DNA of 64,000 nucleotides from Bilabrum cf. latius (GCA_965178125.1 OZ237759.1:186001-250000); one strand, 5' to 3'; numbered from the stretch's first letter, positions 3-64,000 are shown. A program made the numbers and translations. The notes: generated from the letters alone by a model not told the origin.

Positions 3-3000
3 GGGGATACGGAGCGGGAGTGGGTGTTCGACGCGGTGATCCGGTACATCAAGGTGGTCGGGGGTCCCCCGGGGGCAGAGGCTCTCCTGGTGGGCCTGCG
101 CAACGGCGCGGTGATGCAGGTGTTCGTGGGGAACCCCTTCCCGCTGGAGCTCGTGCGGCAGAAGACGTCCATCCGTTGCCTCGACCTCTCCCAGTCCAGG
201 AAGAGGCTGGCCGTGGTGGACGACCAGACGAGGGTGTGCGTGTACGACGTGGGGACCAAGGAGCTCCTGTGGCAGGCCACGGGCGCCAACAGCGTGGCCT
301 TCAATTCCAGCCACGAGGACAGCCTGTGCTTCTCCGGCGACAACCACCTGAGCATCAAGGTGGGGGACTTCCCCGTGGACAAGAGGCCCATGCCTGGGTT
401 CGTGGTCGGGTTCAACCGGTCCATGGTGTACGTCCTGCACTTTGTGGCCATGCGCACCGTGGACGTGCCCCAGTCCACGGCCATGGCACGATACCTGGAG
501 CTGGGCAAGCTGGACCGCGCGTACGACGCGGCGTGCCTGGGTGTCACGGACCAGGACTGGCGCACGCTGGGAGCCGCGGCCCTGCAGCAGGGCGACCTGC
601 AGGTGGCCAAAGGGGCATACAGCCGAGTCAAGGACGCCCGCTTCCTGTCCCTGGTGTTCGAGTCGGAGACCAAGGAGGCTGCGGGCGGCGTGTCGCCGCA
701 GGAGATCGCGGGGGAGGCACTGGCGTACGCCGGCAGGTTCAGCGAGGCCGCCAGGTCCTTCGTGAGGGCGAGCAAGCCGGAGCGGGCCGTGGACATGTTC
801 GTGGACCTGCGGCTGTGGGCGGAGGCCAAGCGGCTGGCGCAGTCCACGGGCAGCGTGGACGTCGAGGGCCTGATGCTGCAGCAGGCAGGGACGCTCGAGG
901 CGCAGGGGGACTACGCCGGGGCTGCCTCGGTGCTGGTGGCGGTGGGGCACCGCATCCGAGCCATCCACTTGTTCAAGGAAGCGGGGCAGTGGGTGTTCAT
1001 CGGGCAGATGGTCACCGATGCTGCCAACCACGTGCGCCGTGCGAAGCGCGGCCAGGTATTGCCGGCTGCGGCCTCGGGGGCTGGCGCGGATGCTCCCTCA
1101 GGCGAGGCCGGGTCGAGCAGCACTGGCGACCAGAAAGAGAGCCACGAGGAGGTGCTGCGCGCGGCCGCAGTTGCCCTTCGGTCCATCGGCACAGAGGGTG
1201 CCCTGTCTTCGGCCAGGGAGGCCTACGTGGCGCTGGGGGATGACTTGGGGCTGGCCACGCTGCTGGTGGCCATGAAGCGATGGGACGAGGCCAGCGCGCT
1301 GGCGGGGCGGGTGGCGCTGGAGGCTGCCGCGGGGGGCAGCGGGGGAGGCGCTGCTCCCGGGGATGCGGAGCGTCGGGCCCGCGAGCTGGCGGTGAAGGTG
1401 TTCTTGCCTCTGGCCGAGCACAGGGCGGTGGAGGGCGATTTCGAAGGGGCCCGGAGGGCGTACGAGCAGGCGGGGCGGCCGGACCTGGCCTCTGTGCTGC
1501 TGCGGGTGCTGCTGGACAACGCCATCAAGATGGACGAGCAGCAGCAGGCGGCAAGGCTGGCCTGGAGGCTGGCGGATGCCGAGATGGCGGTGGCGAGCGG
1601 GGCTCCTCTGGTGGCGGGCGGCAAAGAGGGCGAGGGCAAGGAGGCGGGGGAGGAGCTGGACGTGGAAGGCAAGTACGGCTCGGCCCTGGGACCGGAGCGG
1701 TACGGGGAAGCGGAGGGCCTGCGCCGGTGGTGGCTGCTGCGGCGGCGGGGGGACATGCACCTTGCCTTTGGCGCGGTCTCGGAGCTGTCGAGAGCCCCCT
1801 TCGCCAGGGAGGGCCCTGAGACGCTGCTGCACGCGGCGTGCTTCTTGGTGAACTGCATGGGGGTGTCCGAGGACAGCGCCAGGGAACAGTCGGAGGGGTG
1901 GGAGAGGGCGTGCGGGGGCGCGGGGGGCAGGGCACTGGACGCGTTGCTGGCTCCCCCCGAGGTGGGGGCGGGGGTGGGTTTGCACGAGCTGTGGGAGGAA
2001 GAGGGTGAGGTGAGGCGGAGGGCAGAGGACGCGGCCATGGGTGCTGCCGAGGGCGAAGAGGCCAAGGAGGGCGAGGAGGAGGATGCTGGGGCCAGGGGGG
2101 GCAAGAAGAGGGCTGGGGATGACCTAGATGGCCTGATCGCCGAGGCAGAGGCGCTCGCTGGGCCAAGAGTTGGAGGCAGGTCCGGAGGCCTGGGGCTGGC
2201 AGGTGACGGCAGCAAGGGGTCCTCCTCCTCCTCTTCTGCGGTGCTGCCCATGCTGCGCGCCCGACCGGCCCGCCTGCCCCAGGGGATCTCTCTCACTGAG
2301 AGCCTGTACGCGCTGGGCAAGACCTCCCCCGCGCTGGGGGCATTCAGGGCTGCACGTCACGCCCTGGATCTGCTCTCCCAACGGCGGATCCCCGTGGCCT
2401 GGCGGGACGACGTGGACGGGGCCGCGCTGGCGGTGCAGGCGCAGGCCTTCGTAGACAACGAGGCGCTGCTGCCCACGTGCCACCGGTGCGGGACTTCCAA
2501 CGCCTTGCTGCACCCCGCGGGAGGGGGCGACCGGTGCGCGAACTGCGGGCAGCGCTTCTGGAGGTCGGCTTCGACGTGGGAGGTGCTTCCGGTCGTGGAG
2601 TTTTGCGTGGTGGGGGATGGAGGTGGGGATGGCGAGGGCGAGGGCGGTGATGGCCCGGTGCCGGCGGAGGAAGCGCTGCAGGTCATCCGTAGGGCCGGGC
2701 CGAGCGGTGGCGCGGGTTAGGGTAGGAAGGGAGGGGAGACGCGAGGGACGGCGGGGGGCGCGGAGACGCTCACCTTCGAAGGGGGGGATTCGGCGGGGGG
2801 TGGCGCTGGGGGGGCGGGGGAGGGTTAGGGGTAGGCCGGCAGCGCGTCGGATCCATTCCGGCCGCTGCTAGCGGACCACTCGCTGGTCAACAGGCCGGGT
2901 CCCTTGCGCGTGCCCTTGTCGGTGGCGGGTATGATACCTGCCAGCGAGGTGCTTGCGGTGAGGGTGCCCCCCACGGTGGGGGGAGCTGCGGGGGGAAGAG

Positions 3001-3251
3001 CGGGCGCCAAGGGGGCACCGATGGGAGGCCGCGCGGCGCCGCGCATGACGGTTTTGCTGCGGAACATGATCCCCGACGTGCCCCTGTTCGCGTGTCCGTC
3101 GTGCTCGCACGTGTTCCATCGGGAAGACCTTGAGGCCAAGGCACTGCAGAAGGGGGGCTGCCCGGCGTGCGGGGCCTCGCTGGCCGAGATGGGTCTAGCG
3201 GATGCAGAGGAAGGGGGCGATGTGGAGAGCAAGGAGGCGCGGTTAGGATGA
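3..3251 (+). CDS. IFT122: Intraflagellar transport protein 122 (IFT-A, WD40/TPR/Zn-ribbon), 5'-truncated by the window edge
   Basis: EREWVFDAVIRYIKVVGGPPGAEALLVGLRNG, IRCLDLS, AYDAACLGVTDQDWR and the C-terminal CPSCSHVFHREDLEAKALQKGGCPAC match IFT122. ORFs 24..2720 and 2904..3251 are in one frame, joined across TAG at 2718, 2826 and 2832. Ends TGA. Confidence 0.93.
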
Positions 3252-3373
3252 TTGTGCGTGGATATTGTCCAGATCGTCGTATTTGACCAGTTCGACCTTC
3301 ATCCGGAGCGCTGCTGCCAGCCGCGGGTTGCCACTGCGCATGACAACATAAATCAGTTGAACGACAACTCACC

Positions 3374-4984: not shown

Positions 4985-7900
4985 TCATGGCCCCGCCAGC
5001 TGCCCTTGCACCTTATTCGTGGAAGGCTGCTCCACCCCACTGCCCTTCTCCTCCGCCTCCGCCTCCGCCCCATCCTGGTCAGACCCGGTGCCAAGCGACC
5101 TCAGCAAGAAGGCCCTGAGCTCATCTCTGTACTGGGTGATTGCCTTCTGGTTGGTAAACTCGCGGATGTCCTCGCTGTGCCACCCCGCCGCCGCCCTCTC
5201 TGCATACAGCAGGCAAGCCACTCCGCAGTCGAAGCCGGTCTCTTGATGCTGCGCGGGGATGGCGCTCCGGGCCACGGACTGCCAGCTGCTCGATGCAGAC
5301 TGCGAGGGTGAGGATAGGCCGGTCCTCCCCTTGCTGCGGCCCCCCGCCGCGGCGGGCAATGGGGCCACCCTGTCCAGCCAGTGCACCACCGCTCTGGGCA
5401 TGGACCTAAAGCTCATGCTCTGGCCCTCTCTTCCTCCCCGCGTGGTGGGCTTGCCCATCGGCTCAAAGACCTCCAGCAGTGGGGCATCAGGGTCTAGCAC
5501 AACACGCACGAGGTTCCAGTGGTTCTTACCAGGGTTCCAAAAGAAGAGTATCTGCGGCGGAGGGGCCACGCTGACCCGCTGGCATACCAGCATAGCCTTG
5601 ACCATCGGGCCGTCTGCTGCTGCCGTTTGTTTTGATCCACTGCTGGATGCAGCGGCAGAGTCGGACCACGCCGAGGACGAGGACCCAGTGGAGCGAGGGG
5701 AGTTGACTTCTCCTCGGAATGTCCCCCGACCGCTGCCACTGCCGCTGGTGCCGGTGCTGCCACTCGCGCGGATTTTGGCTGCAGCCCGTGCCCGCGCGGC
5801 CTCCTGCTGCTCTCTGGCTCTGGCGTTTTCCTCCTGCTGCTGCTGCTCCTCTGCCTCCTTCACCGCCTCCTCCCACTCCTGTCTCCTCTGCTGCTGCAGC
5901 ACCTCCCTCGCAGTCTCCACGCACGTGTTCACGTGTGCAGCCAGCATCTCCTGACTCTGCCTCATGATGGGCTGTTGCACGCGCTGCACCTCTGCCATGT
6001 CCACGGTCTCCACCGCCACCTGCGCCTGCGCCGCCACTGGAGCCATGCCCTTCTCTATGAGCTCCCGCATGCGGGTCGACTGCAGCCGGTTGATTTCCTA
6101 AGTGCCCGCCCTCGTCAGCTCATCCATCCGCTCCTGCATCCAGCGGCTCGCCGGGTCACAGAGAGCAGCCCGCGCCGCCAGCGCTACGCACTGCTTCTGC
6201 GGCCCGTCGGGATGTGCAGCTGCCACCCCGTCGATGAAGAGCAGCGCCACGCTGCGGCAGGGCGGCGACCAGGAGGTGGGGACCGCGCGCCCCATGCAGA
6301 GACGCGTGAAGTACTGGAGCAAGTCGTCTTCGGTGACCGGGCTGGGCTCGCTTGGGGGCTGCAATGCAGCAGAAGGGGAGGAAGCCGTGCCAACGAGTTG
6401 CAAATGGTGCTGTCCGCTTGTAGCACTGGTGCTGGTACTGGGGCTGGTGCTACCAAGGGCGCGGCCGGCTGCCTCTGGCTCTGCGCCTTCCCGCGGGCGT
6501 TTCCGAGGGGACCTCGGCTTCGGAGCAAGCACCTTGGCAGCCTTGCGGGACCCAGCCCTGGGTCCCCCCTTGGAAGTTCGGAGGCGCCGCCTGTAGACCA
6601 CCGGCCTGCAGCACAGCTCAACTCGAAACCTGCCCGGGAGGCCATCCAGCGCACTTGGGTTCCTGCCGCTTGCTGCTGCTGCTACTGCTGCTGCTGTGCT
6701 ACCCCCACCGCCCTGCCCGACCGAATCTTCCATCCCGGGCTGGTTCCACGACCCCTTGATACTTGTCCCCGGAGCCGGAGACCCTTCCCCGCGCTGTTGG
6801 AATATGCTCCGGACATCCACCCTCCTGCCCAGCAGGTCCGTGGGCTGATACTCCCGCAAGTTGGTCTCTGTGCGGCACGCGCTCTCCGCCTCAAAGGCAG
6901 CAAAGGTGCACGGCAACACGTGCGCCGCTGGGTAGTTCCTCTGGATATGCATGCACACTAGGTCGATGAGGGTCCCAGTCAGCCACGAGTCCCCATCCAC
7001 GGGTGCTGCTTCCAGGTCCATCTGGCAGGCGGCCCTGGCCACTGCGGCTAGGTCGGGGGGAAGGCGGTGCGGGCTGGGGCCAGCGCGCGATGAGGATGAA
7101 GACTGGGCGCCAGATGCTAGTAGGCCGGGGTGTGATCCTGCAGGCCCCACGGACAGCTGGAGGGGGGGCGGGGAGGAAGAAGAAGAGGCAGACGAGGAGG
7201 GATGCCCCCGGCCTTGCCCCTCTTGCGCCCCGCTGCCATCGCTAGAGGACCTGCCTGTGCTGGAGGCAGTGCCCGCAGCAGAGGTACCGGGCCTCGTGCC
7301 CTCGTCCCAGGGCTGGGGAGCAGCTGTGACGAGTGCATCGCCCTCGCTCCACTAGCTTGGCCAGCGGCCGGTGTGCGCCCCAGCAGCTGCAGTGGCGGTG
7401 CTGCGATTCTCTTGCCCAATTGAGTATGCTGATGCGTCTGTTGGGGTTGCATCTCCCGCTCGTAAGTCCCCGCCATGCCTGCCGATGCCACTGCCCCGCG
7501 AGACGAAAGAATAGGTGCCTGGGGCAGGCCACCGCAGGGGGGCTGCAGCCAGTGCCGCCCGTGTGGCAACCGCGCTGGGGGCCGCTGTGCAAGAGACACA
7601 CGATCGTAGGAATGCATCTGTTTCCAGAGGGCCGGGAACAGAGGCGGAGGATGCTACTGATGCTCCGGGCGACGACGACGACGACGACGACGACGATGAA
7701 GAGGCGCATGGGGCCGATTTGGCGCTGCTATGGGAGCGTTGCGGCAAGCTCGGGGCACCGGCCCCCGCTGCCATCTTTGCAGATAGTACGATGCTTCGGG
7801 CGAGCTCCTCCAACGAACTTGAATCTTCTGCATCCTCCTCTTTGTCTTTTTCTTCCTGCACTTCTTGTTTCTTCTTCTCACCAAGGCAGGTCTGAAGCTC

Positions 7901-8116
7901 GAATGGGTCCTCTTGATAGCACCAGGGAGTGCGGCAGCGAGGAACTCGCAATCGCACGAGAAGACCAGACGGCTCAAAACCGTTCAATTCCCTTGAATCT
8001 AAGCCGCGGACCATTGGAATGCCGTCTACGCTACCGTTCCAACCTGTAGCATCTGCAGCAACACCCGCCACCACGCCGGCATCCTCAATTGCCGCTGGCT
8101 TTGCACCAGATGCCAT
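4985..8116 (-). CDS. Ulp1/SENP-family (C48) SUMO/ubiquitin-like protease, ~1043 aa
   Basis: Three ORFs in one frame joined across TAG 7352 and 6098. Motifs SWLTGTLID, NPGKNHWNLV (His), VFEPMG (acidic) and QHQETGFDCGVACL (Gln/Cys). Ends TGA. Confidence 0.78.
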
Positions 8117-9875: not shown

Positions 9876-9949
9876 TGAGCTCCGATCGCCATGTGAGGCA
9901 TTTTAGGTGGGCGGCCACAGTGGGCCGGTAAATCGTCCATCAGCGCAAA

Positions 9950-11680
9950 ATGAATTCCGTATTTTCGATTCTATGCGCATCCGTTGCGGTTGCCCAACTC
10001 CACTCATAGATGCTCAGGGCGTACTATGTGCTCAGCCCCAACTCTTCAAGACCGCACGTCCCAGATCAATCCACGCTTGCCCCCAGGCTTGCCGATGGGA
10101 CAGCGCTTCTGTACACTGCGTTTGGAGATACGTATCTATTCTAGAATGGGTCAAGCGTGGATGTTTCGGGTGATAAGGAGCTGTGGCACGATGCTGGGCA
10201 CGGGGACATTGAAACAATGGTGGGCGACGCCAAAAACGCATCGCTCGTGCATGGCTACGTGCACATTGAGCACGGCTGGTATGTAAATTCATAGTATCGG
10301 TACTATGGGACGGTACACTACAGCGTCTCGGAAGATGGCGGTGCTAGTTTCTCCTCTGTCGATGCCAAGGACACGCTTTGCGTGGTCAGCGCCGGCCCGC
10401 CCGACATTGGCGGCCCGAACAACACGGGCACGGGCCCGCAGTGGGCTGTGCTGCAGCCAGAGGCTGGCTACATCTACCTGTACGTGTATGACGCGTTTGC
10501 CATCGACGACGCATCGGGAGCCCCTGTGGGAGGCGTCACCGTGGCCCGCTCGAGCGTAGGGGACGCGGGCAGGCCCGGCACGTGGCACAGGTATTTCCAG
10601 GGCAGCTGGGATAGCCCTGGGGTGGGCGGGAATGCGAGCGCCCTGACAGGCATGCGCGGCACGAAGGTGATATACTGGCAGTCCCAGGGGTTGTGGGTCT
10701 CGGTGGACTACTAGGGCGGGCTTAGCACCTCACAAGATGGACTTGTGTGGACCCCGGAGCCGTTCCCGCTGTTCCCCGCGCCCCTCCCCGAGGCCTGGCA
10801 GACACCCCCGATCAAGCCCGCCAAGTACTACTACACGAGCCTGATCCCGCAGAGCGGAGGCAGCGTGTGGGGCAATGGGAGCACCACTGCAGCAGACGCC
10901 GAGGGCGTGGTGACTGGCCGCGCTGGGCGCGAGTCACAGCTGTCAGCGGATCCGAACGCCGACGAGATCCTGTATCTGTTCTACCTGTACAACCAGGCCA
11001 CCACCGACTCCTGGCATGATGTGGTGCGCGGGCTGGCTCGGTCCTCGGTCAGCCTCCGCATGGGAGCCCCCTCGAGTGGGGGCGGAGCTGAAGGCGAAGG
11101 TGATGGTGAAGGTGATGGTGAAGGTCTTGACGGCCAGGGCATCGTGTCGGTCCTTGGGCTGGGGAGGTACGAGAAGGCCGGGGCCGGGGGAGACGTGACG
11201 GACCACTGGGCCACCGTGGGCCCGCCCACTCGCTCCTGCGATGCCTGCAACACGAGCGACTACCAGTACGTCATCCTGCTCGGGTATCTGGCCACAGATC
11301 CGGCTGCGTGGGGAAGCGAGATCCTCGCTGCTGCTGGTGCAGACGGAACAGCGGGCCCCGTGGGGCTGGTGGACTGCTATGACGCGCAGAACGACGACCA
11401 CATCGCCACGCTGGAAGGGGAGTGCGCCGGCATGAACCAAATCGGCCAGCACCACTCGCAGCTGCACACGGACGGGCTGCCCAGGTACAGGGCACTCGCT
11501 CTCATGGGCTACCTATCGAGCAAGCAGTCGGCCAACCCCGCCCCCAAGGAGTACGACCTGCTGCCATTGGCCCGGTGCTTCGTGAACCAGACCAAGGACC
11601 ACTACCTGTCTCCGGTCTACCCGTGCAAGCAGGGGGAGCAGCAGACGGACATGGGATTCATCTTCTGGCCCGCGAGCTGA
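9950..11680 (+). CDS. Secreted Asp-box/BNR beta-propeller-like protein (possible glycosidase) with Cys/His C-terminal repeats, 576 aa
   Basis: Signal peptide MNSVFSILCASVAVA. Single frame across TAG 10007, 10142, 10292 and 10712. Asp-box-like SEDGGASF and SQDGLVW; C-terminal DC(Y)..DDH / RCF..KDHY repeats. Ends TGA. Confidence 0.62.
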
Positions 11681-11942: not shown

Positions 11943-14900
11943 TCACCCCAGCGGGAAGTGACAGCCCGCGGCCTGCGAGGCATACACCCACGCTATCCCC
12001 TCACCCCCCACATTGGGGTCAGCTGCAGCGGCTGGCGCTCCCAAGGCCCCGCCCACACCCCTAGGTCTACCAAGCTGCAGGGCCCCCACCCCCACACCCG
12101 CCCGCGCCCCCAGCCCTCCATCCAACCTCCGGCCCACCGCAACACCAACACCAGCTCCAGCCCCGGCACCTGCACGCGTCCTCTGCGGTCGTGCCTTGGA
12201 AACATGTTCGCCGCCCCTGCGAGCCCCGCCCCCCACGTTGGGGTCAAACGCCTCGATCCCCTCGATGAGGAACCGCGACACGAGCCTCCTGCGGCCGTGC
12301 GCCGCCCTCTGCTTCCAGCTCTGCATGCACCGCCGCAGGAGTGACAGCCTCGAAGACCGCTGCACCTTGGCCTCCAGCAACAGGGCTCTCTTGGCAGCCA
12401 GCTCCCTCTCCCTCCAGCTGCGAATGCCCGCCTGCACCCCAGCGAACTCCTGCGCAGTGAGGGCGAGGGTGCCCCTCGCGCCCCTGCCGCGCACTGCAAG
12501 CACACTGCCAGCCGCTGACCGTCCAGGGAACAAACCCCCTGAGCCGCTCCTGTCGCCCCCCAAGCCCAGGCTTACCCCGGAGTCCACCGTGCCCCCGTTC
12601 ATGCCCCCGATTCCTTCGGCCAAGGTCCATCCCCCCGTCCTGGTGCTCAGGCTAGAGGCCCTGGCCCCTGGGGCTAGCGGCCTCCTGGCTCGACCATCGA
12701 TGGCGTCGCCCACCTGAGCAGACCGGGGGCGGGGAGCCAGGGGGTCTCGTCCTCTGCCCCTCGGAGCGGATCGGCTGCGCTGGCTAGGCCCTCCCTGGCT
12801 TGGCCCTCGCTGGCTAGGCCCTCGCTGGCTAGACCATCGCGCGGCAGATGCCCTTCTTTGCCGGACCCTGGCTTCATGCACCGTCGCGGACGAGCCGCGA
12901 GCGAACAGGTTCGATCCAGTTTCTGTGCCATCCATGCCCCCGTCCTTGCCAACCTGCTCGATGCCCACGCCCACGGTCACTGTCACGGGCAAGGGCCGGA
13001 ACTCGAAGGAGGGTCCGCCTCGGTGCACGCGACGGGCCGCATCCACAGCAGGAGAACCTCGCCCCGCATCATCGTGCAGTGCACCCAGGGCCCTTACACG
13101 GCCCCCGATCGAGGACTCCCACGGCGCTGCCTCCTTCACATGCCCCTGCACAGCCGCCCCCCTGGCCGTCGTGGATCCACCGGTCTGTCCTCGGGCCATC
13201 GCAGCAGCGTCGTCCACCGAGTGCAGTCCGATCTCATCCTCCTGCTGCATGCCCCCATAGGCCCCCGCCAGCGCTCTGACGGCAGCAGCGGCACGAGAGG
13301 TCTCATCCGCCCTGCGCATCGCTCTCTCAACCGCCTCGCGGCGCGCCCGCTGGCCCTCGCCCTCGGCAGCACCGTCCACCTCTCCTCTCACTGTGTGCTA
13401 CATGCGAGCCAAGCCCCGCCGCAGCCTGGCTCCCCGCCCCTGCAGATGCTGGGCCGCGTCATCGCGCGAGTCCGTCTCCCCGCGAATCGTCGTGCGCCCG
13501 CTGGACAGCTGCCGCCGCCGAAACTCAACGGCTAGTTGCTACCTCCTTCTCTGCAGAGCCTCAATCTCGGCCACTGCGCGCCAAGTGCGCAGAGGCCCGA
13601 GGCAGCGCCTCCTGCGGGCCATGCGGCGAGCCCTGTGAAGCAGCACCCAGGCACGGAGCACATGCCGCCCCATTCGGGTCTCCCCTCGCTGCACCGCATG
13701 CTCTTCCACGGATTTTCTGCGGTCAGCAGCCTGTGACGCGGCCTATTTCCAAGCTCGGAATGCGGATCTGCAAGTGCGCAGTGCATCCCAAGCGGCTGCG
13801 GCCTGCTCCGCGAGGTCAGGGGCAGGGGCAGGACCGGGAGCAAGACCGGAGCTGCGACTCCCTTGGTCGTCCGGCTCCGTGCCTGGGCCATACCTGCCGG
13901 GATCGGGACCGCTGGTGCTCCCCCACGGATTGTGCTCGATGCTACCACTAGTAGGAGCAAAGCCCCGCGGGTCTGTGCCCTCGCCCGGCTCTCCATAGCC
14001 CCGTTGACCGTGCTGGGCAGAGGTCTTGCCCGCATCGCCAACATCGCCTGCATCGCCGCCGCTCTCCTCAACCCAGCTGCCCGGCCGAGTCGGGGGTGCA
14101 CTCCCTCTGCCGCTCTTTCCGCCGGCAAATCGGGAGCCGCGGCTGGCTGCATGCCCTGCACCTGGTCGTGCTTCGTCACCCGGGGCAGCTGGGAACTAAC
14201 CGCTGCTGCCGCTGCCGCTGCTGTCGCCCACCCCTCCTTGAGTCAGTGCTCTTCGCATCGGGGCCGCCACTCCGCTGTGCCCAGCTCTCGAGCGGATGGA
14301 ACCAGTCCCTTTGGCACCGGGTCTCAGTGCGGCCGTCACGCCACCCGCCGATATGACCGACACGGACTCGATGGAAACAGCGGACCGGTTGCTGTCACCG
14401 ACACCCCCGTGCCTCGACCGAGACCGCATCGAACCGCCAGAGAGAGACACGTTCAGCTCCGACTCGGCCTCTTCATCGATGGACTGCAGCCGCGACCGGA
14501 AGCTCCGTGCCGCACGCTGCCTGCCTGACCACTGCATATGCGCCACGCTGCCCCTGGCGCTGCCCATGGATCGAGCCGAGGCTGAGTGGCCTTTGCGCGC
14601 GCCCCACCCCAGACTTGCTGCTCCCACCTCACGGCTTGTCCCACTATGCTCTTCATGTCCAGATCCACTCTCTGGTGCTTTTCCAAACTGGCCATGACCC
14701 GGCCCGCCCTCATCCGACATTCCGGTGCTGGATCGCGGGCGCCCCCTCCACGCACCTAGCCCCGCGGTCTAGTGTCCGAACCCAGACGCACTGCTCCCAC
14801 CCATCTCCATATCTATCGTGGCACTGCTCGGTGCCCTTCCGAGCGGATTTCCAGGAGATGCACCCAGCCGGAAGCTCATACCGCTGCTGGCACGAATCAT

Positions 14901-22259: not shown

Positions 22260-22477
22260 TTTCGGCAAATGGGATATATTAACAACACTAACAATGCAAA
22301 TTATTCAACACGCGTCTACATCATTGGCCTACACGTGATGTTTCACCGCTTTTATTCGAATCGGGAGCAACGGCAAGTGAGCTGAGCTGGTTCCGGTTAT
22401 TGTAGACAACGCATTTGGGGTGTCATTAATGAGCCCCAAAGCCCCTCATTCACCCGTTGATGCAATTAAGCATGCCA

Positions 22478-25093: not shown

Positions 25094-25299
25094 TCCACCG
25101 CTTGATTTAGTAGCAGGTGGTCCCTGCGCAAACGTGCGCGAGACGCCAGCAAACGGATGACGAGTGGAGGGCAAATTGCACTGGCGTGTGCAGCGTAGTG
25201 TGAGCACGTGCTGTACTTTATAAACAGTGCCTGATACATGCAAGCGAACACCTGGCCAGACCACCGGCATGCCTCACCCCCACCCTCACCCTGGGTGAG

Positions 25300-37458: not shown

Positions 37459-37664
37459 GGGGCGCTATCTGGACGATCTGAAATCTGCGTTCGCACCAGC
37501 GTGGGCTGCAGCATTGGGCGCTGCGCAGATCATTCATCAGGTTCCGCACTGGACGGTGGATCCAAGTTGACGCATTACGGTTACGCTTTCGCGCGTGTTC
37601 GGCTGTAGAACCGTGGGAAAACGGGCGAAAAATCAAGAGAAATATTACTGCATTCTTCTGAATC

Positions 37665-40752: not shown

Positions 40753-40890
40753 GGCACGAGTGAATGCGACGCTTGCAGTTCGAGACAAATGGAGTTCCTT
40801 GGTTCCGCTCCGTCATCACGAATGCGCGGCGCCGCTCCCTGCTGGCGCCACTTCTGCAACCGGAGTTGCGCCTGCGACAAGCCTGTAACC

Positions 40891-46914: not shown

Positions 46915-47137
46915 GTTTTTCCTCAGTCTTCACCTTTGGCGGGCGGACGGCAACAGAGCCACACTGGATCTGTATTACAGACATGTGCACGCTATATACA
47001 ATGCGCGGCGCCCGCAGCACCAATTGGTTCCGTTCTGCGATTGCACTTCAGCACAACGTGTCACTATTTGCTTCCTTTGGCGCGTATCAAGGTCTTACTG
47101 GACGCTATCCAACGACATCGTGCTATCAAAGCATTAA
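46915..47137. promoter_or_regulatory. Probable bidirectional promoter between calreticulin and ER DnaJ
   Basis: 223-bp head-to-head spacer containing the palindrome CCAATTGG (~47020) and a TATATA element. Function is inferred from position only. Confidence 0.4.
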
Positions 47138-52707: not shown

Positions 52708-55700
52708 TTAGGCTGGAGCTAGGCCAGGACACGGCTGTAGCGATCGCGACCAAATCAGGGCGAGCACAACCATCGGCACCGACACGCTCAGCAGCTGCAG
52801 CCGCTGCAGGCCCACCAGCACTGGCTCCAGCCCATACACAGCGCGATCCTCCGACTCCTGGAGCACTGACCGAAGCAGCTCGGCATCATCCCCGCCCGCT
52901 GCCAGGCGAGCCGCCGCCAGCGAGCACTCCTGCCAACCACACACCCCGAGCACGCACAGCACCACCCACACCAGCACGCCTGCCACCAGCACGTCCTCCG
53001 CCAGGCGAAGCCACCATCCGTGCCTGTGCACAACGCCAAGCCGCAGCTGCAGCGACCGCCACGCCAGCTCTTTCAGAGACTTGCGGGGCCCTTCCTTTTG
53101 CCCAACACCATTATTGTCTACATGGTCCTGCAGCAACGGCCGCCTGCTGACATGCCTGGCTGCCTGCACATCGTCCCTGTATGCCATCCATGCCGCGGCT
53201 GCCTGGACCTCCCATGCCAGCACGGACAGGCCCCTGATGGCCGAGAAGAGGGCGGGCTGCAGGGCCTGCATGCGGGCCAGTCCCGCGATGGCTCGGTCCT
53301 CGCTGGAGGCAGAGGCGCGCAGCGCGGCAGTGAGCACCTGGGGATCTTGCCGCAATAGGTTGCTTGGTACTCGTTCACTCTGGACAGCAGTTGGAGTGGA
53401 CCGATGAATATCGTCGGTTTTGCTTGCCGCCTTCCGCGGCTCACAGACAGTGTGGTCCTGGTGGCCAGGCGCCAGCACACCTCCCGTCGACTGGACGATC
53501 TGCTCGTCCTCGGTATCGAAGAAGTCCATGGATCTTGCCAGGTCACCCAGAGTACTCCGGGAATCGTACGGATGATCTTCCGAGTCAGAAACTGAGTGTG
53601 AGTTTGGCTGCTGCAGCGGCCCTTGCACCGAATTAGCATCGCTATCTGCAGCTTGTTGGCATCGAGCTGTGGACCGCAGCACGGCAAGTCTGGTCCTGGC
53701 CAGCCTTGCTGTGCCCCCTTGTGGGCGACTGTTGCGGTCTCGCCATGATGCCGCGTTCTAGCCACGGGCATCCTCAGGCGCCTTGGCAGACCCACCGGCA
53801 GGAGGAGCCGGCTTCCGCGGTCCCCTGGAGTCAACGTCTGGAGGAGCCCATGCCTGCTCGGTCCCATCCGTCTTGCGCCCCGCCCTCCTCAGCTGTCGGC
53901 CCTGAAGGGGAGCCCCCACACTCGTCCACAGCGCGGCAGGGTCTGACTCTCCAGATGTTTGGTTCTCGGATGAACCTCCCCACCCACCAGCACCAACGAG
54001 TGCGGCCGTCAAACTGGCACAAATGGCGCTGCAACCATCGCAGCAGCAATAGCAAGTCTCAGGGGGCATGCAAAGCAAGGAACACTGGAATTGCTCATTG
54101 GCTTCCTATTCATTTGCCGGGCCAACATGATTGGGCTACTCGCCTGGCCCCCCAACTGAATACGGCTACCCAGGAGCAAAGCCTGCATCGCCCATTTCGG
54201 CCCTGGCTGGAGCTTTCCATGCATCAGCTACAGAACCGAGCAAATCCACTCTGCACCCCAGCACCATCCCTAGTCGAACCACGCACATAATGGCCAGTCC
54301 CAGCCCCAGCACTAGTGCAGGCAGCGAGCACTCGGCATACACGAGGGTCACCACTAGCGTCCACAGCCAGACAGTTCTCGATGCGAATGCACTAACCCCG
54401 GACACGTCGTGCCAAGCAGCGGTGCTATCATCGCGACGTGATTCTGACTGTGCCGTTTGGACACCATGTTGCCATACTATCGGATCCTCGTACTAATGGT
54501 CGTCATCAGAGCCTTGCTACAGCACTTCATCTTCAAGACTAGTAGCATGAACAGAATCCGCCATCATGACCCGCAAGTCAATTGCGCCGCATAAAGTCGC
54601 GAAGAATGCCATGGCACTGGCTGCAAGCAGAAGCAGCTGCGGCCACATCGTCGACTTGCCAAGCAGCACGCCCCACTCCTGCTCGCAGTGCTCTGCTCTT
54701 GCCTTGCCCATCGCCTTCAGGCATGGCAGCTGCACGCTGTACGACACGGACTCGGGATCCACCGCCAGCAGCCAGGTGCCGCCCTCGCTGCCCGGCCGCT
54801 GGCCCCGGAGAGTGGCGGCCAGGCGCTGGGCCACGGCGCCGGCGGACCGAGCGCGTTGTGGCAAGTTGGATACAGCAGCCGATTGATTGCCATTTGGGGC
54901 TTGCGGGTGTACCAGCACAGTGATCGACAAGCGCATCGGCAGCATCGGCCGAGTACTTGACGAAGGCCTACTGCTCATATTTACGAGCGCAGCTGACCCA
55001 GTGCGGATCAAAACCACCCGAGCATCCCACCGTCTGGACTCAGCAGTGTCTCCGGCCAGATCTCTGAGGTCATCCAGTAGGTCATCCAACATCCACTGGA
55101 TTTGGGTGGGGCCGGGGTTCGGGTAGTCTAACCCAGGCGGCTGATCCGCGCCCCACCAGATTGCCATGGCCTGTGCAGGCAGCCACACGTTCCTGTCGAA
55201 CAGAAGGTCAAACGTGAGTACTGCACGAGCCACGAGCTCGCGCGAGCCCCAGCTCTGCAGCAAGAACCGATTGTGCAGGTGAAAAAACCGCTGGCTTCCA
55301 GAAGGGTGGTCCTACCTACATACCATCTCTGGTGGTGCTGGAATAGAGCTAGTATTGGAGCCATACCTGGGTACGGGGTACCCGCCCTTTGCAGCTCCGG
55401 GTACAAGAGGTACCACGGCCGGTGCTTTCGCAAGCCGATCCACCTGCAGCAGCTCGTCCGACTGGTGCAGCCGAGGGTGTCCCAACCACTCGCCGTACCA
55501 CACCCGCACCACGCTCGCCAACTGCTCCCAAGCACCCTCAGACTGCTCCAGGCCCACGTCTACTGGCAGCCGGATGGGATCATCGCACGCTGCCACGCAC
55601 ACGGGCCGGCCCGCGAAGTTGCCCAGCAGGCTGGATCGGTGGCAGACCCACGAGCCCCCCTAGATGCGCGGCAGGGAGCTGTCCGGGTGCAGCGGGAAGA

Positions 55701-57783
55701 TGCGGGAAGGGACGGCACCACGGTACACGGCCAGCGGGCCTGATAGCATGCTTTCCACTCTTGGCAGTCCCTGGTCTGCGGGACTTTCTTGATAGCGTTG
55801 TTGCGTCAGCTTGTACTGCCCCAGCCCAAATGAGAAGTTTCTCGCAATCTTGCCCGGCACACCCGAAGGGATGGGATACCGGCCTCGCGTCGCCGGGAAC
55901 ATCGGACTCCGCAGGTCATGCTTGCTCTAATAAGGCCGCATGGTATTACCGAGCCCGAAAGCTCGGGAGTTCTGCGACGCCGGCAGGTCGGTCGGCATCA
56001 GGTCCACGTTCCACATGGAGTGGTCCACATCGTACGCCACCGCGCACCCCAGCCTAGCCCGAGGGAACAGCCCGCTCACCGCATCCGTCCTGCTGTACTG
56101 CTCCAGCAGCTGCACCAGGCTGGGCGTCGAGTTCCACGAGGCCATGCCCACGTCGGGGGTACAGTTGCGGCCCTGGACGCACCAGGGGTCGTCCAGCAGC
56201 ACCCGGATGCCAGTTACTGGCGCCCCAGCTCCGCTGCTAGACTTTGACGAAGGGGTTACAGTGCATTGGGCGTCTGATCTGCCGGAAGAGCTCGAACCAG
56301 CATGGTTCGAGCCCGATTTCGTGCTCATCAGCTCGCTTGTAGGCACATCGACAGTCATTGCCACCACGTGCGCCCTGTTGACCCTCCACTGGTAGTCGGG
56401 GCTATCCCCCACGATGGGGGTCCCGGGGGTTATGGGAAGCACGGCCACTGTCCCGGGCGGATACATTGTCATGAGAGATTGATGCCAGCGTGGCGTCCCC
56501 TGCTTTGCCACCACGTGCGACCTCGAGCTCAGGCTCACAGCCCCGATGGAACATACCCTGATCATGAAGATGCTCGCTGGACCCGGTACATGTACCTAGG
56601 GATAGAAACTGTCGATGTTGCGGCCTTTCCACACCGGACAGGTCGAGTTTGGTGGCCCATCTCCACTGCCTGAGCTCCGCACGGCCGGCCACTGCTGCTT
56701 GGGGGGCCACACGGTGAGCTGCCTGCAGACGTCGTTGCCTTCTATGGTGGTGTTCCAGGTGGTGTTGATGGGGCTGTATATGGACCGGGGACAAGCATAA
56801 GCCACAACAGCTAAGCACATTGTGGTTGAGACCACTGCACCATCGTTGGACAACAAGAGCTGTGTTCCGAAATCGTCGGCCATGGACGGCGCAAATCCAT
56901 GCCGGTGTCCCCCACTTGCGAATGAAGGAGTCGTGGCATATGCCTGCGCACCTTGGCTATACACTGATGCTACGAATCCAGCGGACATTATCGAGAACCA
57001 GTTCTCCACGCTCCACGGCTCGGCCGCCCTGGTGGGGAGGCTCATCGCGTAGTCGCTGGCGTTGTGGCCAAGGTGCGCCGGCTGCAGCTGGGGGGTCGCC
57101 AGGGCCGGTGCATTTGTAGGAAGCGTAAGTGCAACCGAATTTCCCCCTGCGTAAGATTCTTCCGAAGATTGAACAGAGCGTGGTGCGCGCTTGGCGAACG
57201 TGAAGTGACAGACGTTGTAATCCCACAAGAAGACTCACACCGTCTTGCCAACGTGGAATGCCCGCCAGGACAGACTGGCCATTGCCAACGGTACCCACGA
57301 TGTGCCCAGTACGCCATTGGGCCAGCTTCATTCATCCAAGGGAGTGCGACCAGCGATGCGCTGTCCTCCTGCACGACAACGCTCGCGACCGCGGAGGAAA
57401 GAATTCTTTGAGTCCGACATTGCAACCCACCAGTCCCTACACTCAGCACAGTTGGAACCCGGTACCAAGTTGCTGCGCTCCGACGATTGGAATTAGAATA
57501 GTGAGGAAAAATAGCAGGCTAGGGTTGAAGGTCCTTGGAAGGCCATCGGCTTACCGTTAGATGTAGCGGCTGGCATGATACTTGAACCAATACCAGCGAG
57601 ATTGCTACAAGAATACTCATCATCGAACCTACTTTCATGAGGAGAAACCATGATTTGCGGCTACATGGTCTCAATGCTGAAGTAAACTGCATTAGAGTTG
57701 CCCTCGGATGCGATAGCTTTGCTCATATTCGATACGACTGCGCTTAATGCTATCGGAGTAGCAAGAAACGCTAAATACTTCAT
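52708..57783 (-). CDS. Large uncharacterised membrane protein (signal peptide, long ectodomain, several TM segments), ~1630 aa; introns 57554-57473 and 57238-57147
   Basis: Nine track ORFs share one frame and are joined by TAG (57661, 56596, 55927, 55660, 55312, 54517, 54493, 54166, 53758). N-terminus MKYLAFLATPIALSAVVS. GTAAGC and GTGAGT introns. Ends TAA. No family recognised. Confidence 0.6.
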
Positions 57784-58078: not shown

Positions 58079-59603
58079 TCAGCTCTGGTTCTTGAAGAGC
58101 GCCGACACGCTCTCCCTTGCGCTGATCCTCTCGATGGCGTGCGCCAGCAGCGGCGCCACGTTAAGCTGCCTGATCTTGCCGCAGGTCTTGGCGTGCGCGG
58201 GCAGCGGGATGGTGTTCACCGTGACGACCTCCTCCAGCACCGAGTCCTTGATCCGATCCACGGCGGGGCCAGAGAGCAGCCCGTGGGAGGCGAAGGCGTA
58301 CACCCTCCTGGCCCCGTTGTCCTTGATGTGCTTGGCGGCCTTGCACAGGGTACCCGCCGTGTCGATCATGTCGTCCACGATGATGCAGTCAGCGCCCTCC
58401 ACCACGCCCACGAGGTCCATGCGCGCGATTGAGTTGGCCTTGGCCCTCTGCTTGATGATCATCGCGAGACCAGTAGAGTCAGTGTCCGTGGCCTTGTTGA
58501 GACCCTCTCGGAACCTCTTGGCCCTGTACACGCCTCCCGCATCGGGCGACACCACCACCACGTTCTGGAGGTCCTTGATCCCGGCGAAGTACTCCACGCC
58601 CACCTGGCCCGCCTCCAGGTTGTCCACGGGCACACGGGGTCCGAAGAAGCCCTGGATCTGGCCGCAGTGAAGGTCCACCGCCACCACGCGGTCCACGCCG
58701 ATCGCCTCGAGCAGGCGAGCAATGTCGGCCGCGCTGATCGGGACACGGGACTGCATCTTCCTGTCCTGGCGGGCGTAGCCGTAGTACGGGATCACGCACG
58801 TGATGTTTTCCGCCGAAGCGCGGCGCATGGTCGACACCATGAGGAGGAGCTCCATGAGGTTTTCGTTCACCGGGGTGCAAGTCGGCTGCACGATGTACAC
58901 ATCCTTACCACGGACATTCTCGTTCACCTGTGCGAACCAATCCAACATATTACAAGGCATTGCATGTTGATTCATGGTCGACGTAGCAAGTTTAGAGCAT
59001 AGTGCCGCAGGGGTTAGGGGTTGCGTTGGATCAGTGGCGGCAACACAATAATTGCAGTTTAAGCCATGTAATGCTTACCTATACATTGACTTCTCCGTCC
59101 ATGAATCGCCCGACGGTGATATCGCCTAGTTTCTGCAGCTGAATGGTGCCAAGGTGCGATGCAATTCCTCGTGGCAGCGGCAAGCAAGAACTCGAGCTTT
59201 TGGCAGAGACCAGGGGCAGCATACGGACCAAAAGGCGCGAATAAGTTAACATGACTTCAAGTTTCTGTTTTCAAGATCTCACAGTGCCGAGGTGCTTCGC
59301 AATGTCTGCCGCTAAATCAAGGTTGGCGTTCCCACTGAAAATTCGAATGGTCTCAGAACCATTCCGTGCTGGGCTGGCAGCACGAATGGTACCATGGCCT
59401 ACCACTGGCTCTTCCCTGGCTTCACTAGCCTCACACTAGACTGGAGACCCCCAAATGCCTGCTGCGAGCCCTAGTCCTGCACCAGCAACTGCGGCAGCCG
59501 ACACGGCACGAGTACCAGCTCCCATCGTACCAGCACGAGATGCCATTCCGCCGAATGACCAAACAGATCTTGATGTCAACTTTCGCATTGCCCTGGCGAA
59601 CAT
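58079..59603 (-). CDS. PRPS: Ribose-phosphate pyrophosphokinase (PRPP synthetase); exons 59603-59283, 59132-59079, 58927-58079
   Basis: IFSGNANLDLA|KLGDITVGRFMDGEVNV[TAG]|VNENVRGKDVYIVQ, PYYGYARQDRK, VDLHCGQIQGFF, VSPDAGG, IVDDMIDTAGT. Canonical introns; TAG also at 59436. Ends TGA. Confidence 0.95.
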
Positions 59604-59916: not shown

Positions 59917-61908
59917 TCACTGGTTCTTCAGGATGGCCTCCGAGATCTGGTCTTTGGTCATGCTGTTGCTGACTTGGGCCCCCTCGTCCTTTGCTAGGCC
60001 CATCAGCTCGGCTTTCTTCATCTTCATCAGGGATGCCTTCGAGTGAGAAGCAGACTCCTATTCTTCTCCTTCCTCTCCATCCTCATCCTTGTCAACCTTG
60101 GTAGACGGAGCGGAGGGGTTTCCTTCATCGTTGTCACCGCTGCTCGAGGCGGCCTCCTCCTCCTTGTCTCCCACGGCGGGCCCGTCTCCACCCTGCACCT
60201 GTCCCTGTCCCTGCACCTGTCCCTGCACCTGCACCTCGTCGTCCTCGGCGTCCCCCTCGTACTCGTCCTCGGAGGCCTCCCGCGGAGTCCCGTTGATGAG
60301 CTTGAAGAGGATCCGCAGCATCAGGTACCACCAGTACAGGTGGAGCAGGAAGAGCACCTGCAGCAAGATGTTGCTCTCGAACCACATGTGGATGAACTTG
60401 CCCACGTGGTGCGACTCCACGCCGACAGCCATCACGCAGACGCACTGCCACCGGAACCAGGCGTAAGGGTTCAAGTACCACGGGTCCTCTGGGGGGGTCA
60501 CGATCGTGCCGCCAGTGTACCTGCTGGGGAACAAATCGCGGTCGATGTTGGCGGCCAGCAGCTCCTGGGCCTCGTCCCAGGTCTTGACCGAGGCTCCCTC
60601 CCCTACGGGAGGCACCTGGTCGTCGGTCCACCGGATCGAGTCCGACGCGCTCCTGGATAGCTCTGCCTCCCCGGACTCAATTTGGCGAGACTCCTCGATG
60701 TAGACCCCCCGAAGCTTGGAGACGAGGTCCTCATCACACACCCGCTCGATGCATGAGTACGTGATGCCCGTGTCGTTGGGGTCCAGTTTGGAGTTGTCCA
60801 GTCGGACGAGGACGTGCCGATGGTCCATGGCCAGCAGGAGGTTGGACTGGCGGTATGCGTTCATCTCGTGCGCCCGCCAGAATGCAGTGTAGAGCACGCG
60901 GCCGGGTCCCTCCCAGATGCGCCAGTAAAAGTGGAAGAAGAGCATCTGGAAGAACGCGATCTCCACGATGAAGAAGCCCTTGAGCCCGTCCAGCGTCAGG
61001 AAGTTGGCCATCTTGAGGACGTCCACGCTCACGTCGCAAGCGTCGTTGATGAACAGGACGAGCATGCCGGCGCGCTCGTTCCAGGAGAGCAAAGAGGACG
61101 CTGCGGGGGAAACAGGTAAGAGTAATAAAGGGATGGTTGAAAAGGAGGGATGTGTCAGGCAACTGAAACACCACGGAATCGCGGTGCAACGATGCGTCCT
61201 CCTCTCACCGACCAGCGCGATGGTGACCACGTGGTGGATCAGCATGGCATAGAAGTCCTTCTTGCGGTGCTCAAAGTACACGCACGAGAATCCAGTGTAA
61301 GTCCAGACCCCAAGCTCGGCAAAGTAGAAAACCAGCAGCGGCATGTTTTCAAACTCCTTGGCCTGCTGCTCTTCAGGGTGAGGGTACCAGATCATGTGCG
61401 GGTCATCCCACAAGTTCGGCCATGCAAACCTGGTGTTTTGTCCTTCCTTGGCTTGCCAGGGCTGGTAGAACAGAATGTACACCTCCCAAAGCATGAATGT
61501 TGTGTGGACAACCAGCTGCCAAGCCTGCTCCTTCCACTTGTGCATCTGCTTCTTGTTGCGAAGCGGCCGCTCGTCGACCATTCCCCACTTTGTTACTCGA
61601 TGGGATATGGCGTGCCCAATGTGCTCAAAGATGAACTTGGAGAGCTCCACTACAAGCGGTGCAGCAATCATGGACGCGGCGTACGCCAGCAAATGCGACT
61701 TCTTGTTACGCTGGATCAGCGCTACAACCATCCAAATTGGTTCAATGATGAGAAGAAATACGAGAATCTCTTCTAAAACGGGGATATACTTGTAATGATT
61801 CGTCCTCTTAGGCGCCGGGGCCTTATCAGTCTTTGCTACCATGTTTGCTGGGTCAGGGGGTGACTTGCCGGCTGCCACCTTAGATGACGCTTCTTTACTC
61901 AATGGCAT
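59917..61908 (-). CDS. TLC-domain ceramide synthase (LAG1/LAC1 family) with C-terminal HeH/Rho-N-like helical module; intron 61208-61101
   Basis: KWKEQAWQL; Lag1p motif RKKDFYAMLIHHVVT..GMLVLFINDACD..LKMANF; LHLYWWYLMLRI. Readthrough of TAG 60058 adds SLMKMKKAELMGLAKDEGAQVSNSMTKDQISEAILK. Ends TGA. Confidence 0.85.
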
Positions 61909-62120
61909 ATGTGTCACAAGTTCCGTACAGTTCGATGTATGGTGCTGCGGCTACCTGACACAGCGCCAACGCGACGCAACTGCTTGTTCACCACAACTTG
62001 TGGCCGTTGGCGCCGAGCCTGCGGAGCGGTTGCAACCTGCGAATGAAGAAGAGGACCAAAATCCACCACGGGCTTCGAATTTGGAAGCACGCACGCCGCA
62101 TACCTTTGACGGTGGTGAAA

Positions 62121-64000
62121 TCATCGATTCAATTCATCGGTTCGCGCAGGTCTCTCGCTCCTGGCACCGGCCTGCCGAAGAGCCTTGACCTTCAAGCTGC
62201 CACTGGCACTGGCAACACGCGCTGCCCCAACCCCCGCTCTTGCCGCATAGCCCGCCGGAGGCACTCGCTTCCTGGGCATCTGAACGGGCACCCGCCTGCT
62301 CGTAGTAAACCTGCGGGCCTAACGTCCCGACGCAATTCGTGACCGGTCATCCTCGACAAGAGCTGCCACTCCGCTTGGGCTCGGGCTTGAGGGCCCCTGT
62401 TGTGCCGCGCCCCGCCTTGTCTGCTCCTTGGAGCCCGGTTTAAAACGTCTGCCCCTCTTCTTCCTCTTGCTACTGACCATGCCGTTGCCTTCGGTCTTGC
62501 CTTTGCCGCTCCTACTGACCTTGCCTTTGCTCTTGGCTTTACGTTTTCCCATTGGCACAACTCTTGCCTCGTTGCCACTGCCACTGCCACTGCCACTGCC
62601 TGCTTCCTCATGGCGCCCATCAGCAGCGTCCTAACCCTCACCCTCGTCATCGAACGCACCCACAGCTGCAACACCAGACGGAGTGAGAGGCACCTGGCCA
62701 TCAGCATGGCCAAAATATACCTGGCCATCATCACGAGCGTGGTCGCGGGCATCGCCCTATTCATGCGTCCTGACTGCCCCTGATATTTCGCCATGCATGC
62801 CGGCCCTGTCTCCGTCAATCTCATCCGGGTGAAACACGGAAGGCATGGTGTGCTCATGCAAGCCTGGCCACGGACGGCGCAGCAACTCAGCCGCATCACT
62901 GGAGCTGCCCTCTGTACTTAAAAAACCACTATAACCACTTCCCTGTAAACCAGCGCGGACTGTAGGACGTACAGCACCACTGGCACCCTTGGATGCCTCG
63001 TTTTCCCTCCGTTGCTGCACACGCTGAAGAAAACTACCTACGTCAACTCCAGCACGAACGCCAGCCACATCGCCGCCTGCTCCGGCCGTACCCAACGAGC
63101 CTTCTTCGTCTTGCTCCACGGAAGCAGGGCTGGCCCGGGCGCGCAACCTCCAAGCAATCTCTCCGGATGGGCTCGTTGAGGCCTGTCTCACCGCATCATC
63201 GCTGCGCATGGCCCCGCCTGCACCAGGTGCATCGCCGCGCCGTTGAGTCCTCTATCCTGCTTGTAGCGACGTTCCTTCAATATAAGACTCATCTGCTAGG
63301 CTGCTTTTTAATGCGCCATTTGCAGCGGCATCTAGCTTCCAGCGGACACCCAATAGGTGCTGGCTGCCTACTGCAGCCTCGTGGCCTGGCAAACTCCGCG
63401 CAGAGTACCTATCGCCGACCATTGTCGTATCAGCAACGCGCCCAGAGGAAACCAAAACGCGACTCTGCTCTTGGTCTTGCCCCAGCCCTGGCCCGTCCTC
63501 CAGTCTCCTGAGCGCCTCGTCCACCTGAAGGAGAAGTGATCGGTTGCCCCGATATCCCGCATCAACACCTGCGTCTGATCCAGTAGACGCGGATGAATGG
63601 GGACCCCCTGGCTTGGCATACTCCGCACCAGCAGTTGTCGGCGAAGGTGCTACCGTCACGTGCCCAGGGGAATGCACCCCAAGGATGGGTGGCGAGCGAA
63701 GCGCGGCCTGCGTCTGCTCCCGCACTGGCGTATCACAGGACTGAACCGAAAAATCAGAGGTGAGCTGTGGATGTGCGTGTGTTCGAGCATGCGACTATTT
63801 GCTGGCCGGTGATTCATCAGCTGAAATTAAGGCCGCAGCAGGAGCTGCAGGCTGCTCCTCACCTGATGCTGGTGTCGGGGCCTGCACTGGAGCAGCAGGC
63901 TGCTCCTCACCTGATGCTGGTGTCGGGGCCTGCACTGGAGCAGCAGGCTGCTCCTCGGCTGATGCAGGTGCCGGGGCCTGCACTGGAGCAGCAGGCTGCT
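62121..64000 (-). CDS. Low-complexity/disordered protein with 16-aa tandem repeats, 5'-truncated by the window edge
   Basis: ORFs ending at 63795, 63252, 62757 and 62319 share one frame and each ends in TAG. First TGA is at 62121. No family recognised. Confidence 0.55.
63844..64000 (-). repeat. 48-bp coding tandem repeat (PVQAPTPASGEEQPAA), at least 3 copies, runs off the window end
   Basis: Unit gcaggctgctcctcacctgatgctggtgtcggggcctgcactggagca repeated on the + strand. Confidence 0.93.

Follow-up and report, generated by a model that had tools for sequence, protein, structure and literature searches.

Introduction

Few nuclear genetic codes give UAG and UAA different meanings, and those that do bear on the discrimination between the two codons by the release factor eRF1, on the joint change of UAA and UAG and on the fixation of a code change. 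The survey of McGowan et al. (2024, PMC11687900), as far as its excerpts go, counts about eight lineages of this kind, four of which read UAG as glutamine. Within these excerpts, UAG alone is glutamine in Iotanema spirale, Protocruzia tuzeti, Hartmannula sinica and Trochilia petrani, leucine in rhizarian exLh and in TARA phyllopharyngeans, and serine in Scotinosphaera, and the ciliate PL0344 uses UAG for glutamate and UAA for lysine. The same excerpts list the table 6 code, in which both codons (UAR) mean glutamine, for many ciliates, hexamitin diplomonads, some ulvophycean green algae, Amoeboaphelidium and Streblomastix. Here, we analyzed a stretch of 64,000 nucleotides (nt) from Bilabrum cf. 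latius (GCA_965178125.1, OZ237759.1:186001-250000), referred to below as the window, whose open reading frames (ORFs) are very probably explained by a code of the table 15 type, with UAG read as glutamine throughout, UGA as the main stop and UAA as a minor one.

UAG as a sense codon

ORFs were defined from stop to stop with TAA and TGA as the sole stops, resulting in 20 ORFs with 17,905 codons. Under the standard code the longest frame of the window comprises 905 codons; with TAG as sense, frames of 3453, 1548, 1508, 1082, 1043 and 1012 codons are obtained. The maximum stays at 905 codons when TAA is set to sense instead, and reaches 1174 for TGA, the commonest stop triplet. The chance that a frame of 3,453 codons contains neither TGA nor TAA is about e^-61 (hand arithmetic). 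Altogether, the 20 ORFs hold 101 in-frame TAG codons; counted after the first ATG, there are 99 in 17,427 codons (0.57%), found in 17/20 ORFs. First exons taken from spliced contigs add one TAG to the coding sequence (CDS) of a GDSL lipase and two to a gene without assigned family, here called the 41177 gene, after which 18/20 CDSs carry the codon. The TAG-free ones are the calreticulin CDS and the PRPP synthetase ORF, for which no first exon was looked for.

When the same spans were read off-frame, TGA occurred 539, TAA 93 and TAG 221 times per 35,770 codons (TAG 0.62%). In frame, TAG is thus found near its chance rate, whereas TGA and TAA are missing across thousands of codons. The TAGs are evenly spread along the genes, with 13, 15, 12, 7, 8, 10, 9, 7, 8 and 10 per decile. 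Read as glutamine, they would represent 12% of the codons for this residue (101/824, next to 574 CAG and 149 CAA). Contig depth is highest for calreticulin and for exon 2 of the GDSL lipase, neither of which contains TAG. This would be in line with UAG as a minor codon of lower efficiency, although contig depth is a poor measure of expression.

Several conserved domains are reached only past TAG codons. The C-terminal part of IFT122 (3..3251, + strand, open at the window edge and ending in TGA) shows a beta-propeller, TPR and zinc ribbons at residues 819-865 and 1030-1056 in Pfam, with PDB chain 8bda_L as best match; its three TAGs (codons 906, 942 and 944) lie between the ribbons, and the C-terminal ribbon is therefore located behind them. 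In a hybrid histidine kinase (29699..32737, +; HisKA, HATPase_c and receiver; 14 TAGs, TGA end), Pfam places the HATPase domain (449-582) downstream of eight TAGs and the receiver (REC, 889-1006) downstream of 14. Similarly, the ELMO domain (PF04727, residues 631-794) of the protein encoded at 22478..25273 (-; nine TAGs, TGA end) follows eight of them. As these domains have to be translated, the TAGs upstream of them are read as sense. In Pfam searches, single frames cross TAG not only for IFT122, ELMO and HisKA/HATPase/REC, but also for DUF255, DnaJ, HAD, piggyBac-type DDE, DEAD, TLC and peptidase C78. Consequently, UAG is an ordinary sense codon in nearly every gene of the window.

These results can be set beside the initial annotation of this DNA, which had given about 100 TAGs in 20 of 21 reconstructed CDSs: the codon count stands, and the share of CDSs is close to, though not the same as, the one obtained here. 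Its statement that fragments of recognisable proteins rejoin in one frame across TAG is borne out by the Pfam domains, and the tandem TAG TAG that it reported is real (codons 878-879 of the 3,453-codon ORF). A preference of TAG for places beside CAG or CAA proved weak, with 8/101 TAGs followed by a glutamine codon and three preceded by one at about four expected each.

Transcript contigs

GT..AG-spliced joints are present in contigs from the runs X6, X7 and X8, which points to mature RNA in these runs. The sequences are assembled contigs, not raw reads, and rare variants drop out of them. Among the pieces listed, 26 (X6), 7 (X7) and 5 (X8) of the 29 TAG codons at 29001-49000 are covered, with no other letter at any of these positions. 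For example, a 577-nt X7 contig spliced at 41097>41267 retains TAG both at 41417 and at 41504, and X6, X7 and X8 contigs over the DnaJ locus (47076-48749) likewise show no other letters. In addition, runs of four studies hold at least half of the stretch's words. Transcript contigs that keep their TAGs argue against editing.

Amino acid encoded by UAG

Close relatives settle what distant homologues had left ambiguous. Metagenome contigs were scanned with the window's DEAD-box helicase (DDX47/Rrp3-like, Pfam; 38935..40812, -; one TAG at codon 62), yielding L001, L002 and L006 (79-92% identity, GC content 0.58). All three keep the gene order of the window, comprising the 41177 gene, the helicase, the GDSL lipase and a SPATA20/DUF255-like protein (PF03190; 7tkv_A; L001 orthologue; 32887..37533, -; seven TAGs, TGA end). 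The longest frame of L001 has 279 amino acids in the standard code; with TAG as sense, frames of 648, 639 and 566 amino acids appear, and this relative therefore needs TAG as a sense codon, too.

The L001 helicase contains four in-frame TAGs, all of which stand opposite CAG in the window (4/4; codons 83, 173, 213 and 492). One of them occupies the glutamine position in the Q motif (PTPIQ), a column that reads Q in 5/5 PDB chains shown (CshA, DDX47, two DBP10 chains and Has1); this glutamine defines the Q motif of DEAD-box proteins. L002 and L006 were left out of the pair counts as copies of the L001 species. Comparison of the window with L001 gave 22 pairs of TAG versus sense, of which nine are glutamine (eight CAG, one CAA). 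Where local identity, calculated from ten flanking aligned positions on each side, is at least 0.6, 7/9 pairs are glutamine, with one histidine and one aspartate.

A second relative is represented by protein fragments. Opposite the 3,453-codon low-complexity (giant) ORF (11943..22304, -; 20 TAGs, TGA end), the fragments P0168, P0169 and P0170 from an 85% relative align collinearly and show Q, K, Q, Q, E and Q at six TAGs (E at codon 1097); P0168 ends exactly at a window CAG, codon 1548. The ORF at 9932..11680 (+; TGA end), which encodes a secreted-looking protein of an unnamed family, has TAGs at codons 26, 71, 121 and 261. In its 92% relative, the protein is split into fragments close to codons 71 and 121, and the residue at 261 is glutamate. 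In all, seven TAGs of the window can thus be compared with the 85-92% relative, which has Q, K, Q, Q, E, Q and E at these positions. Its non-glutamine partners are glutamate (twice) and lysine (once), whose G-ending codons, GAG and AAG, are each a single first-base change away from TAG; this would fit, without showing it, a turnover of TAG via first-position changes in a relative seen as protein fragments.

When the two relatives are pooled, 13/29 pairs are glutamine, compared with a background of 4% (binomial P = 2.8e-11). A BLOSUM62-based likelihood over 56 aligned residues places glutamine above glutamate by 11.2 ln units and above lysine by 23.6, with serine 30.9 ln units behind glutamine and leucine outside the six best-scoring residues listed. 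Judged from these alignments, UAG is to be read as glutamine in the window organism. The use of UAG as a codon for glutamine is common to the window species and at least two related species, and is therefore older than their split.

Distant homologues were compared at several further genes. In a UFM1-specific protease-like ORF (peptidase C78, PF07910; 3344..4693, +), the single TAG (codon 81) lies in the GWGCxYRxxQ box and aligns with a glutamine of 2z84_A. The HAD-family (HDHD2-like, Pfam) phosphatase at 27342..29186 (+) has six TAGs, the last one adjoining its TGA stop, and codon 117 stands opposite E, E and Q in PDB alignments. Kinase TAGs are found opposite E, E, P and E and, at codon 379, opposite A, I and M. 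In the DnaJ/thioredoxin-like protein (47138..48613, +; Pfam; four TAGs, TAA end), the TAG within the J domain is opposite E and E. For the 9932 family (198 homologues at E<=0.001), the four TAG columns read Q/Q/Q/E, I/L/V/M (codon 71), D/S/T and S/T/E. The 1,508-codon ORF without Pfam family (52708..57234, -; ten TAGs, TAA end) had two matches only among shorter proteins (P0166 and P0167), whose residues at TAG are T and R, in stretches of low conservation. A word-based search with the piggyBac-type ORF gave no homologue among 7,992 candidates and no PDB match.

Stop codons

Seventeen of the 20 ORFs end in TGA and three in TAA. The TGA ends match the C-termini of homologues for the 9932 ORF and for the DEAD-box helicase, the latter both in the window and in L001, and UGA remains a stop and the main terminator. 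The TAA ends belong to the DnaJ gene, to the 52708-57234 ORF and to an ORF without Pfam family at 25300..27684 (-; three TAGs, two after the first ATG). Six ORFs supported by homology along their entire length, namely IFT122, the 9932 ORF, the DEAD-box helicase, the kinase, SPATA20 and the giant ORF, comprise 8,227 codons with 48 TAG and no TAA, at about 12.5 TAA expected from the CAA:CAG ratio of 0.26 (P about 4e-6, hand arithmetic). Setting TAA to sense lengthens almost nothing, either in the window or in L001, and the DnaJ transcript contigs end 72-136 nt past the TAA. In the 64 kb examined, UAA appears to be a minor stop, a point that is less certain than the rest.

The code first proposed for this DNA, UAG as glutamine with UAA and UGA kept as stops, agrees with the Q-motif TAG, the glutamine pairs and the 17 TGA and three TAA ends. 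Among the objections foreseen with it, editing is contradicted by spliced contigs with unchanged TAGs, and a lack of glutamine at TAG columns by the enrichment in close relatives.

Alternative explanations

Some of our findings weigh against this code, and they are considered here along with the alternatives. A ciliate-type code (table 6) would make both UAG and UAA glutamine and UGA the sole stop, with UAA rare from GC richness. Indeed, the UAA stop is deduced from three ORF ends, none of them matched to a homologue C-terminus, and the argument from missing TAA depends in part on the definition of the ORFs. A preference for codons ending in G or C, as in CAG over CAA, makes UAA rare regardless, and UAA and UAG usually change together according to the excerpts of PMC11687900. 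Against this stand the homology-supported ORFs, in which no UAA stands in frame as a glutamine codon, the frames that TAA as sense fails to extend and the end of the DnaJ contigs shortly after TAA, and we regard table 6 as very unlikely. A different proposal keeps UAG as the only reassigned codon and gives it to glutamate or another amino acid. Among distant homologues and PDB chains, glutamate is the commonest partner, with 8 E and 5 Q in 27 aligned residues and likelihoods of 0.0 for E and -0.2 for Q; distant homologues alone cannot separate the two residues. Hydrophobic columns occur at two TAGs (9932 codon 71 and kinase codon 379), 3/7 pairs with the closest relative are glutamate or lysine, including the glutamates at 9932 codon 261 and giant codon 1097, and codes with UAG as glutamate, leucine or serine are among those in the excerpts of PMC11687900. 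A glutamate meaning was live after the first close-relative column read E, and was dropped on the evidence of the giant ORF, L001, the Q motif and the likelihood: the L001 TAG occupies an invariant glutamine of DEAD-box proteins, the close-relative pairs include 13 glutamines versus two glutamates out of 29, and glutamine leads in the likelihood. Such a meaning is very improbable.

UAG might also depend on context, serving as sense inside genes and as stop at some gene ends, as in codes of the Condylostoma or Blastocrithidia type. The HAD ORF, which ends in TAG TGA, speaks for this and against a uniform meaning, and the DnaJ ORF has three TAGs within its last 50 codons, which are unconserved. 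However, TAG is not required as terminator in any of the 20 ORFs, since all reach TGA or TAA, and the even distribution along genes shows neither a pile-up nor a gap at the 3' end; a dual meaning is considered unlikely. Finally, the standard code could hold if the TAGs were edited (U-to-C), located in pseudogenes or due to assembly errors. In this respect, X6 is flagged as probably DNA and the RNA status of X7 and X8 is a guess. Nevertheless, the spliced contigs keep their TAGs, TAG alone and never TGA or TAA interrupts 17/20 ORFs, the same sequence is present in runs of four studies, and the frames are open in the relatives as well, with conservation at 79-92% identity, which leaves the standard code next to no chance. 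Reading UAG as glutamine, with UGA and UAA as stops, is retained in the following.

Decoding of UAG

Based on Panek et al. (2017, PMC5304391), of which excerpts were used, this code would require a transfer RNA (tRNA) for glutamine with anticodon CUA, which pairs with UAG and not with UAA, together with an eRF1 whose recognition of UAG is weakened. By analogy, both a tRNA-Gln(CUA) and an eRF1 with lowered affinity for UAG are to be expected in the window organism. New TAG codons would arise mostly by C-to-T changes from CAG, and their turnover would proceed via first-position changes. No eRF1 gene is present in the window. ARAGORN called no tRNA in the window, and Rfam gave no match there; on L001-L007, ARAGORN called Leu(CAA), Met and Gly only, with no anticodon CUA. 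The 88-nt tRNA-Leu(CAA) call (L001 6867-6954, -; L006 3422-3509, -) lies antisense in the SPATA20-like coding region and is probably false, the corresponding position of the window yielding no call.

Gene content of the window

The window is eukaryotic nuclear DNA, GC-rich, compact and intron-poor. Its GC content ranges from 53 to 69%, with a mean of about 63% over the 64 kb; values of 0.53-0.56 are found at 44001-52000 (calreticulin, DnaJ and piggyBac-type genes), and outside of this region they are mostly 0.60-0.69, with 0.57-0.60 at 52-64 kb. The Pfam families present include IFT122, ELMO, the DDX47-like DEAD-box helicase, DnaJ, calreticulin, PRPP synthetase, the UFM1 protease, the hybrid histidine kinase and the piggyBac-type transposase, among others. 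Genes occur at a density of about one per 3 kb on both strands. The contigs of three runs jump stretches of 90, 169, 141 and 131 nt that are bounded by GT..AG, and spliceosomal introns are therefore present.

The GDSL lipase (37615..38747, +) has a 90-nt GT..AG intron at 37934-38023, and its single TAG is located in exon 1, exon 2 being free of the codon; its splice joint 37933>38024 is present in X6, X7 and X8. The 41177 gene (40912..43549, +), which has no Pfam family, contains a 169-nt GT..AG intron (41098-41266) and five TAGs in its spliced form, the joint 41097>41267 being present in X6 and X7. Calreticulin (45431..47000, -; Pfam, no TAG, TGA end) has introns at 46511-46651 and 46705-46835, 403 codons in its spliced ORF when counted from the first methionine, and the highest contig depth of the contig-covered stretch (1,554 in X6). 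Its C-terminus, encoded in the 45431-46531 part (-), is DEEL and not the usual KDEL/HDEL retrieval signal.

The remaining ORFs comprise a 1,043-codon ORF without Pfam family (4985..8116, -; two TAGs, TGA end), the PRPP synthetase (58079..59074, -; Pfam, no TAG, TGA end), a TLC-domain protein (59917..62133, -; two TAGs, TGA end) and an ORF open at the window edge (62121..63998, -; five TAGs, TGA end). The piggyBac-type transposase ORF (PF13843; 49242..51146, -; TGA end) contains seven TAGs and has either lived under a code with UAG as sense or is decaying.

Local repeats were observed at several of these genes. In the HAD gene, a 27-nt tandem duplication at 28212-28270 has an in-frame TAG in each copy. 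At 11633-11775, the final 48 nt of the 9932 ORF, TGA included, occur as three tandem copies with a 93% match, so that the gene is followed by two extra copies of its last 15 codons and stop. In the DNA run X1, the summed contig depth is about 128 at 30335-31001, inside the kinase gene, and about 112 at 48344-49000, beside the piggyBac-type ORF, versus 13-25 elsewhere. Both regions look multi-copy, and X1 variant contigs were found at 30541, 30615, 30877 and 48895-48957.

Convergent neighbour genes are 150-190 nt apart, as exemplified by kinase and SPATA20 (32737-32887, about 150 nt) and by GDSL lipase and DEAD-box helicase (38747-38935, about 190 nt). A single X6 contig (30845-37467) traverses both the kinase and the SPATA20 genes, which suggests either overlapping 3' untranslated regions or DNA in run X6.

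Identity of the organism

Several features argue against a ciliate, namely the multi-gene contig, introns of 90-169 nt, the GC content of 63% and the PDB scores of IFT122. These amount to 423.7 bits for 8bda_L, 402.9 for human chains, 264.8 for 8f5o_C and 244.6 for 8hmc_A, where we take 8bda to be from Chlamydomonas and 8hmc from Tetrahymena. Neither the green-algal TGTAA signal nor AATAAA is enriched 3' of the window's stops, and a chlorophyte affinity therefore receives no support from that side. Matches in the ESM Atlas were confined to generic clusters of IFT and calreticulin proteins.

At 38900-48700, runs under four coded organism labels and from four studies share at least half of the stretch's words. 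Those of X1, X6, X7 and X8, which carry three of the four labels, match almost without differences. The organism behind these matches may be recorded under more than one name, or it may be carried along in other cultures.

Comparison with described codes

We consider it fairly likely that the window represents an independent, undescribed origin of a UAG-only glutamine code, in a clade of cilium-bearing eukaryotes with compact, GC-rich genomes that comprises at least three lineages at the species level, belongs to neither ciliates nor fornicates and uses UGA as the main terminator. In the full-text literature (subscription journals and supplements being outside its scope), no report of a nuclear code with UAG as glutamine was found beyond the taxa named above. 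If true, this would be the first code of the table 15 type in a strongly GC-rich nuclear genome, and the codon-capture route, in which UAG is lost under AT pressure, could not explain its origin there. A UGA-dominant case at 63% GC offers a background unlike that of the AT-rich ciliates and would test the need for composition-driven codon loss. In practical terms, gene calling with the standard code fragments most proteins of this organism and its relatives, and annotation should use table 15; the database entries P0002, P0017, P0152, P0168 and P0169 are fragmented because such gene calling breaks proteins at TAG.

Among the described systems, the fornicate Iotanema spirale resembles the window in that UAG alone has moved to glutamine while UAA is kept as a stop, with the same predicted tRNA-Gln(CUA) and altered eRF1 (PMC5304391, excerpts). 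It differs in that UAA is its dominant stop in the same excerpts, whereas TGA ends 17/20 ORFs here, and the window is further set apart by 63% GC, a hybrid histidine kinase and calreticulin. The ciliates Hartmannula, Trochilia and Protocruzia likewise use UAG widely as a glutamine codon that most genes carry. According to the excerpted data of PMC11687900, however, UAG provides 18.5-31.8% of their glutamine codons, compared with 12% in the window, UAA represents 84-92% or more of their stops, and their GC content is 27-54%, in contrast to the TGA-dominated ends and 63% GC found here; the window also differs from them in being a 64-kb multi-gene contig with GT..AG introns of 90-169 nt. Table 6 codes share the change from stop to glutamine, with TAG where relatives have CAG, but in the window UAA is not sense. 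The other UAG-only codes (leucine, serine or glutamate) have UAG and UAA uncoupled as well and differ in the amino acid, which is glutamine in our reading. Altogether, the window probably shows the known table 15 type in a new lineage and not a new kind of code, and, as far as the excerpts of both sources describe them, it is distinguished from every described UAG-only taxon compared by its predominantly TGA ends and its GC content of 63%.

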